A stretch of DNA of 458 bases from Escherichia coli. Its GTDB lineage: Bacteria; Pseudomonadota; Gammaproteobacteria; Enterobacterales; Enterobacteriaceae. The notes under the pieces are model-generated. The model saw only the letters and a program-made list of their open reading frames with translations. It did not search any database and was not told where the DNA came from. Shown here piece after piece: positions 1 through 458 of the stretch (position 1 is its first letter; each line of letters starts with the position of its first letter). Made by a program: the position numbers and the translations under genes. Location: assembly GCF_003334305.1 (NCBI RefSeq), contig NZ_QOWS01000076.1. The stretch is one strand, 5' to 3'.

Positions 1-458
1 GGGTATGACGCTGCCGGGCGCATCACCGTGCTGACCAACGAGAACGGCAGCCAGTCCACGTTCCGGTATGACCCGGTCGACAGGCTGACGGAGCAGCGTG
101 GCTTTGATGGCAGGACGCAACGTTACCATTATGACTTGACCGGAAAACTCACGCAGAGTGAAGATGAGGGGCTTATCACCCTCTGGCATTACGATGCGTC
201 AGACCGTATCACCCGGCGCACGGTGAACGGCGACCCGGCGGAACAGTGGCAGTATGATGAACACGGGTGGCTAACCACCATCAGCCATACCAGTGACGGC
301 CACCGAGTGTCGGTCCACTACGGCTATGACGATAAAGGCCGCCTGACGGGCGAACGGCAGACGGTGGAGAACCCGGAGACGGGGGAGATGCTGTGGGAGC
401 ATGAGACGGGGCATGCGTACAGCGAACAGGGGCTGGCGACCCGTCAGGAGCCGGACGG
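1..458 (+). CDS. Rhs-family YD-repeat protein (polymorphic toxin shell/core region), internal fragment; partial at both 5' and 3' ends
   Basis: Frame 1 is open across the whole window (152 complete codons, no stop), while + frames 2 and 3 hit stops almost immediately (TGA at nt 32-34 and nt 6-8). The translation contains six recognisable YD-repeat units with Y-D dipeptides at codons 2-3, 23-24, 44-45, 64-65, 85-86 and 109-110, each followed by a G/D-R-L/I-T-like motif (e.g. RYDPVDRLT, RYHYDLTGKLT, WHYDASDRIT, YGYDDKGRLTG). GC is about 62% by hand count, consistent with the established GC-rich Rhs core. The paralog (rhsA/B/C/D-like) cannot be resolved from an internal core fragment, so no gene symbol is given. 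Confidence 0.92.

Follow-up and report, generated by a model that had tools for sequence, protein, structure and literature searches.

An acidic segment of an Escherichia coli Rhs core protein as a mildly degenerate YD repeat with an elongated β-hairpin

Introduction

The closest described relatives of the sequence analysed here are the RHS element core proteins of Escherichia coli (NCBIfam NF041261), which include RhsA-D and the vgrG-linked paralogs, and of which it is an exact member. Among proteins of solved structure, the best homologue is Tse5 from Pseudomonas aeruginosa (8cp6), which shares the cocoon fold predicted below (Foldseek E 1e-86, TM 0.77/0.85, 31% identity). The Tse5 structure paper describes a repeat Tyr that faces the cavity and a repeat Asp that is often replaced by Asn or Ser, leaving the hairpin undisturbed (PMC10684867). 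RhsA from P. protegens (7q97) forms the same shell, and TcB/TcC cocoons and teneurin YD shells have the same YD-repeat β-spiral architecture (Foldseek E 1e-30 to 1e-40). Rhs containers are reported to be negatively charged inside and outside, with a smooth, undecorated exterior (bioRxiv 10.1101/2024.02.26.582050), and the cores of the family are known to recombine with one another (PMC2935791).

The window, by which we mean the whole 458-nucleotide stretch of E. coli DNA under analysis, encodes a part of such a core. A first-pass annotation made from the letters alone drew attention to its 3′ end, bases 349-458, as a Glu-rich segment that departs from the canonical YD repeat, and offered two readings: a strongly degenerate repeat, or else a loop or lineage-specific insertion in the shell. 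We assign a probability of roughly 0.88 to the reading that the segment forms part of the wall of the Rhs β-cocoon, as an elongated β-hairpin followed by a YD-type turn in which Asp is replaced by Ser.

Results

The parent gene and protein

Frame 1 of the window (1..458, + strand) is open throughout and codes for residues 646-798 of a 1499-residue protein annotated as "RHS element core protein" (CDS WP_097346590.1, NZ_CP025851.1), to whose DNA it is 100% identical by megablast. The same DNA, again 100% identical, is found within annotated Rhs genes of many E. coli chromosomes. A matching core occurs in 3708 of the 5426 complete genomes of the species, and the median copy number per genome is three. 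The NCBIfam RHS_core model (NF041261) matches residues 4-1254 of the parent protein without a break (profile positions 3-1261) and with a score of 2554 bits, the equivalog cut-off being 2000 bits. TIGR01643 (YD_repeat_2x) scores 168 bits and Pfam RHS_repeat gives 13 matches on the same protein; its Rhs-associated C-terminal core is recognised by TIGR03696 (82 bits) and Pfam PF03527, both outside the window. In strain 510016, tssB, tssC, hcp and vgrG lie immediately upstream of the 1499-residue Rhs gene, and a small open reading frame (ORF) followed by an ISAs1 transposase lies on its 3′ side. The G+C content is 0.57-0.67 over the core and 0.39 in the tip. All the membership features tested are present, the cocoon fold by prediction, and the parent is thus a T6SS-linked Rhs, or YD-repeat, toxin core.

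The boundary motifs of the parent are DPIG at residue 1228 and PVQRGDPLGL, which conforms to PxxxxDPxGL, at residues 1245-1254. Neither PxxxxDPxGL nor DPxG motifs occur within the window, and the earlier statement that the segment is not the core/tip boundary is borne out, the PxxxxDPxGL motif being some 450 residues downstream.

The flagged segment and the repeat rhythm

Bases 349-458 correspond to residues 762-798, and codons 118-152 read ERQTVENPETGEMLWEHETGHAYSEQGLATRQEPD. The first-pass annotation had quoted this peptide correctly, though with a start one codon early, since base 349 opens codon 117 (Gly) and the quoted peptide begins at base 352. Its count of eight Glu in 35 residues, the absence of a Y-D dipeptide from codons 118-152 and the placing of H-A-Y-S at codons 138-141 all agree with the sequence, as do the six preceding repeats, whose Y-D dipeptides are at codons 2, 23, 44, 64, 85 and 109. 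The features of the window are as follows.

1..458, + strand: frame-1 coding sequence, residues 646-798 (megablast match and RHS_core score)
1..342, + strand: six canonical YD repeats with periods of 20-24 residues (Y-D positions and Pfam RHS_repeat matches)
343..369, + strand: descending strand L-T-G-E-R-Q-T-V-E, residues 760-768 (DSSP strand 670-678 of the AlphaFold2 model, pLDDT about 90-94)
370..387, + strand: hairpin tip loop N-P-E-T-G-E, residues 769-774 (non-strand model residues 679-684)
388..420, + strand: ascending strand M-L-W-E-H-E-T-G-H-A-Y, residues 775-785 (DSSP strand 685-695 of the model)
421..435, + strand: degenerate YD-type turn S-E-Q-G-L, residues 786-790, with Ser at the Asp position (alignment to Tse5, RhsA and Tse15)
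436..458, + strand: short strand A-T-R-Q-E and the start of a P-D-G-L-P-P loop (DSSP strand 701-705 of the model)

The P-D-G-L-P-P loop leads to a conserved WLTYGSG block just past the end of the window.

The spacing from Tyr to Tyr is 20-24 residues over the six preceding repeats and 31 here (Y754 to Y785), so that the reported departure from the canonical repeat is a genuine and reproducible one, in the form of a 31-residue period. A spacing of about 21 residues is found again downstream, at TYGSG (Y806/Y807), YTRDRLH (R827-D828), AWNTSG (W849-N850) and DYDWND (869). Matches to Pfam RHS_repeat stop at residue 764 and restart at 871, leaving residues 765-870 unscored and, as far as this profile goes, atypical. 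Compared with a canonical unit, the segment has the Tyr at the end of the strand (Y785, codon 140) and the turn Gly at +3 (G789; the turn in the model spans residues 786-790), but Ser786 stands where Asp should follow the Tyr, and the distance to the preceding repeat is 31 residues in place of about 21.

Homology and conservation across Rhs cores

Residues 640-962 were aligned by HMMER to proteins of solved structure. The alignments run unbroken across the segment for four Rhs cores (8cp6, 8qja, 8uxt/8uy4 and 7q97), and they place HAYSEQG opposite HSHDALG of Tse5, EFDELS of the A. mimigardefordensis VgrG-Rhs protein (8qja), YEYDELG of Tse15 and HRYDELG of RhsA. Beyond the segment, all four share the block WLxYGxGHL...FxRDxLHRE. 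Tse5 resembles the window in keeping the repeat position (HSHDALG) and in the block WLTYGPGHL...FERDALHRE that follows it; it differs in a hairpin that is 6 residues shorter, in retaining the Asp and in having His for Tyr. In P. protegens RhsA, the downstream landmark is likewise recognisable as YGSGHL...FQRDRLHRE, whereas the repeat itself is the fully canonical HRYDELGNL, with a 20-residue period and no extension of the hairpin.

A scan of 1.84 billion representative proteins returned 149,685 matches at E <= 0.001. From the best 150 representatives we picked 28 relatives with 32-78% identity, a small sample, and calculated column statistics over the resulting 29 sequences. MAFFT L-INS-i on the region, MAFFT on the full-length proteins (alignment A1) and MAFFT on the excised region (alignment A2) gave the same correspondence. 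The segment is found in all 28 relatives, and its consensus is DxxGRxxxExQ....WxHxxxHxYDxxG. G758, E763 and G789 are invariant, and Q765 is Gln in 25 of the 29 sequences. Along the ascending strand, position 777 is Trp in 21 and Phe in 7, position 779 is His in 22 and Tyr in 6, and His783 and Tyr785 are found in 23/29 and 19/29, respectively; the columns between these conserved residues have entropies of 2.3-3.0 bits. The tip-loop columns are of high entropy and are gapped in 6-16 of the 29 sequences.

At position 786, the Asp site, the column contains D 18, N 5, S 2 and Q 2 (28-29 sequences), and Ser is therefore found in a minority of sequences at what is a conserved position of the YD repeat. 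The alignments and the column statistics agree in making H-A-Y-S the equivalent of (aromatic)-x-Y-D with Ser for Asp, as the first-pass annotation had supposed. Its description of the repeat as strongly degenerate holds only in part: the repeat is degenerate, but only the Asp has been lost and the His, the Tyr and the Gly at +3 are retained.

With the regional profile, S. bongori Rhs (8qjd) and Vibrio RhsP (8h8a) each gave one continuous match, a result taken at table level, and Photorhabdus Rhs1 (7pq5) did not attain E <= 0.01. In teneurins the profile matched only the generic flanking repeats. For TcB/TcC and teneurins together, it is these flanking YD repeats that match, coverage is confined to profile positions 9-71 or 124-164, and the segment and its downstream landmark are unalignable by sequence. 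Because of these outcomes, any statement about all family members applies here to the sampled T6SS-type Rhs cores. The annotation had contrasted its reading with that of a standard repeat conserved in the core of every family member; the latter is essentially what we find among T6SS-type Rhs cores, except that the length of the hairpin before the repeat varies.

Hairpin length

The hairpin between the two turns is 29 residues long in the window. It spans 27-30 residues in most relatives, 23 in the group that resembles Tse5 and up to 37 in a few, and in 17 of the 28 relatives its length differs from that in the window by 0-2 residues. In terms of the period at this site, P. protegens RhsA has 20 residues and E. 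coli 31, and elsewhere the period reaches about 39. Compared with RhsA, the hairpin of E. coli has about 10 additional residues, and compared with Tse5 about 6. Since hairpin length varies across the family, the 10 residues in excess of a standard repeat are seen to lie at a hairpin that tolerates insertions and deletions.

Within E. coli, length is constant. Paralogs with 81-95% nucleotide identity, including genes annotated as rhsD, have a segment of exactly identical length, and the paralog clades checked share the pattern W-x-H-x-x-x-H-x-Y. The E. coli copies read GERQTVENPETGE[M/L]LW[E/Q/H]HET[G/K]HAY[S/N]EQGLA[T/N]R... Copies of the RhsA-D type, which read ...ELLWQHETKHAYNEQGLANRVTPDS, differ from the window by point substitutions only; they have Asn where the window has Ser at the Asp site, and six Glu instead of eight. 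Judged from these alignments, the length seen in E. coli is the one usual in its clade and no private insertion.

Predicted structure

Residues 91-1290 were modelled by AlphaFold2 from alignment A1, and secondary structure was assigned by DSSP. The model has a mean pLDDT of 84 and a pTM of 0.78, with pLDDT values of 81-94 in the blocks that span the segment, and is predicted to consist almost entirely of β-hairpins. The top Foldseek matches are Tse5, the A. mimigardefordensis Rhs protein, RhsA and Tse15, and superposition on other T6SS Rhs cores gives TMq values of 0.54-0.74. In the segment the predicted order is strand, loop, strand, turn, strand (residues 760-768, 769-774, 775-785, 786-790 and 791-795). 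The two long strands comprise 9 and 11 residues; in the shell as a whole the median strand length is 6 and the longest strand has 11 residues. The neighbouring strands, in residues 736-754, are likewise long, which points to a sheet strip that is locally wider at the segment.

The only long region of low confidence in the modelled core is at model residues 177-201, where pLDDT falls below 50. It coincides with a Ser/Pro-rich stretch, SLSSPAGPRSASSSSAFPDTLPAG (residues 267-291; L001 6864-6938), that follows a 16-residue helix.

Glutamate content

No stretch of 35 residues in the parent protein has more than the eight Glu found here, a count whose binomial p for a single stretch is 0.002. When the residues are shuffled, however, some stretch attains eight or more in 32% of trials with the full protein and in 46% with the core, and the count is therefore within chance. 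The label Glu-rich is accurate as a count, but it does not denote enrichment, which the shuffle test rules out. Only one of the eight, Glu763, is conserved, being invariant in the family (29/29 sequences). The remaining seven (768, 771, 774, 778, 780, 787 and 795) occupy loop, turn or variable strand positions with column entropies of 2.1-3.4 bits, and relatives have 1-6 Glu across the aligned stretch. Because of this variability, the acidity of the segment, whose net charge is about -7, is best regarded as a drifting surface property of a sub-lineage. As judged from the aligned sequences, it fits the generally acidic surface of Rhs proteins and not a conserved functional patch.

Discussion

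A probable wall element of the cocoon

The reading favoured here draws on the identity of the protein, the positional homology of the segment, its conservation pattern, its predicted secondary structure and its lack of Glu enrichment, each of which is demonstrated in the analyses described above. The segment is a repeat that is only mildly degenerate and whose hairpin is elongated, an ordinary element of a kind that is already known and is covered by curated models and solved homologues. As a wall element, it would help to enclose the C-terminal toxin. Strands 760-768 and 775-785 would pair around the NPETGE tip and be followed by the turn S-E-Q-G, in which Ser replaces Asp; the register of about 21 residues resumes directly after this turn. 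E763, Q765, W777, H779, H783 and Y785 alternate along the strands and should face the lumen; Glu residues in between should be exposed to solvent and free to vary. We assign the conserved face to the lumen and the variable face to the exterior because the repeat Tyr of Tse5 faces the cavity; the assignment is thus inferred from the alternating conservation together with the published description of Tse5, as is, at a more general level, the way in which the tip packs. The extra 10 residues would then merely widen the sheet strip locally.

Alternative explanations

The length of the hairpin invites the alternative that the segment is a lineage-specific insertion or a surface loop decorating the shell. 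It exceeds its counterparts in P. protegens RhsA and Tse5 by about 10 and 6 residues, the site tolerates insertions and deletions to the extent that 23 to 37 residues separate the turns among relatives, and the stretch goes unscored by Pfam RHS_repeat. However, a single length is found in every E. coli paralog clade examined, 17 of 28 relatives at 32-78% identity come within 0-2 residues of it, and the curated RHS_core match passes through the segment unbroken. The model, moreover, predicts paired β-strands with high confidence and no loop at this position, and the exteriors of T6SS Rhs proteins are reported to be smooth, without decorations (bioRxiv 10.1101/2024.02.26.582050). An insertion is accordingly improbable, and the corresponding half of the first-pass proposal falls, given that the paralogs are of the same length, that all 28 relatives have the segment, and that it lies inside the RHS_core match in predicted strands with pLDDT 81-94. 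A narrower version, in which the long hairpin with its acidic NPETGE tip is a surface feature specific to the Escherichia clade with a function of its own, such as contact with VgrG or an adaptor at loading or a weak point for opening of the shell, we consider very unlikely. If it were true, the substitutions clustered in window 376-458 would reflect diversifying selection and not neutral mosaicism. The tip sequences of other relatives (DPHEQ, DKIGQQ, NADGEA and others) indicate that it is conserved only among close relatives. NPETGE also contains what we take to be matches, 4-5 residues long, to the NPxTG sortase signal and to the ETGE Keap1-binding degron. Since conservation of the tip stops at close relatives and the tip belongs to a structural repeat of a Gram-negative protein, these look-alikes are ascribed to coincidence.

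A functional acidic patch, acting either as a site at which VgrG or an adaptor docks or as a charge that keeps the toxin unfolded, would account for the peak in Glu density along the protein and for the net charge of about -7, and it would be in keeping with the acidic nature of Rhs containers in general (bioRxiv 10.1101/2024.02.26.582050). The same density is, however, attained in 32-46% of shuffles, Glu763 alone is conserved and the other seven stand in columns of 2.1-3.4 bits, relatives make do with 1-6 Glu, and the RhsA-D-type paralogs have six; there is little likelihood that the acidity serves such a role. Least probable of all, to the point of being negligible, is a feature that does not depend on the plus-strand protein, whether an RNA element, a DNA repeat or an antisense gene. 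The minus strand does carry a 47-codon ORF beginning with ATG (window 271-414), but ORFs of this kind are expected at a G+C content of about 0.6, and we regard this one as probably a by-product of base composition. Rfam gave no match at E <= 1 on either strand of the window, no inverted repeats were found, and the only direct repeats are two that are short and imperfect. Frame 1 of the plus strand, by contrast, is open and annotated, and is conserved at the protein level over 30-90% identity.

Significance

Taken as a wall element of the cocoon, the segment marks a site in the shell where the length of a hairpin varies while the register and the residues presumed to face the lumen are maintained. 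Such a length-variable site could be a tolerant insertion point in the engineering of Rhs or Tc-like containers. The importance of the finding is otherwise small: it closes a low-priority flag in an E. coli repeat protein that is among the best known.

Mosaicism and neighbouring features

The paralogs differ unevenly along the window. In 45-base bins, the identity of one paralog (L003) to the window is 89-100% upstream and 76-82% in window 376-465, where this paralog resembles copies of the RhsA-D type; in window 331-375, the values for all paralogs lie at 93-98%. Both the Ser/Asn replacement and the two additional Glu fall in the divergent block 376-465. This mosaic of identities suggests a recombination junction between clades of Rhs cores, and the pattern, as read from the sequences, fits recombination between cores.

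Seventeen bases past the 3′ end of the window is a block (L001 8475-8564, residues 804-833) with the sequence W-L-T-Y-G-S-G-[H/Y]-L ... [F/Y]-x-R-D-x-L-H-R-E. Nothing else in the central core is as highly conserved, and the block is also present in Tse5, RhsA, Tse15 and the A. mimigardefordensis Rhs protein; Y807, G808, G810, R827, D828, L830, H831, R832 and E833 are each found in 26-28 of 29 sequences. From its residues the block reads as two cryptic YD-type repeats with a 21-residue spacing. We found no description of its role in the Rhs literature cited here.

The tip that follows PVQRGDPLGL (residues 1255-1499; L001 9828-10562) has no Pfam or NCBIfam match, and its residues 1276-1429 match CdiA-CT tRNA nucleases of solved structure (5j5v, 5j43 and 8zyc; E about 2e-6). 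An overlapping downstream ORF of 125 amino acids (L001 10565-10942), for which no family match was obtained, is likely to be the immunity gene. Just 3′ of the tip and this putative immunity gene is an ISAs1-family transposase (L001 11411-12547) in A+T-rich DNA with a G+C content of about 0.3. The succession of tip, putative immunity ORF and ISAs1 transposase is the classic layout of a composite Rhs element.
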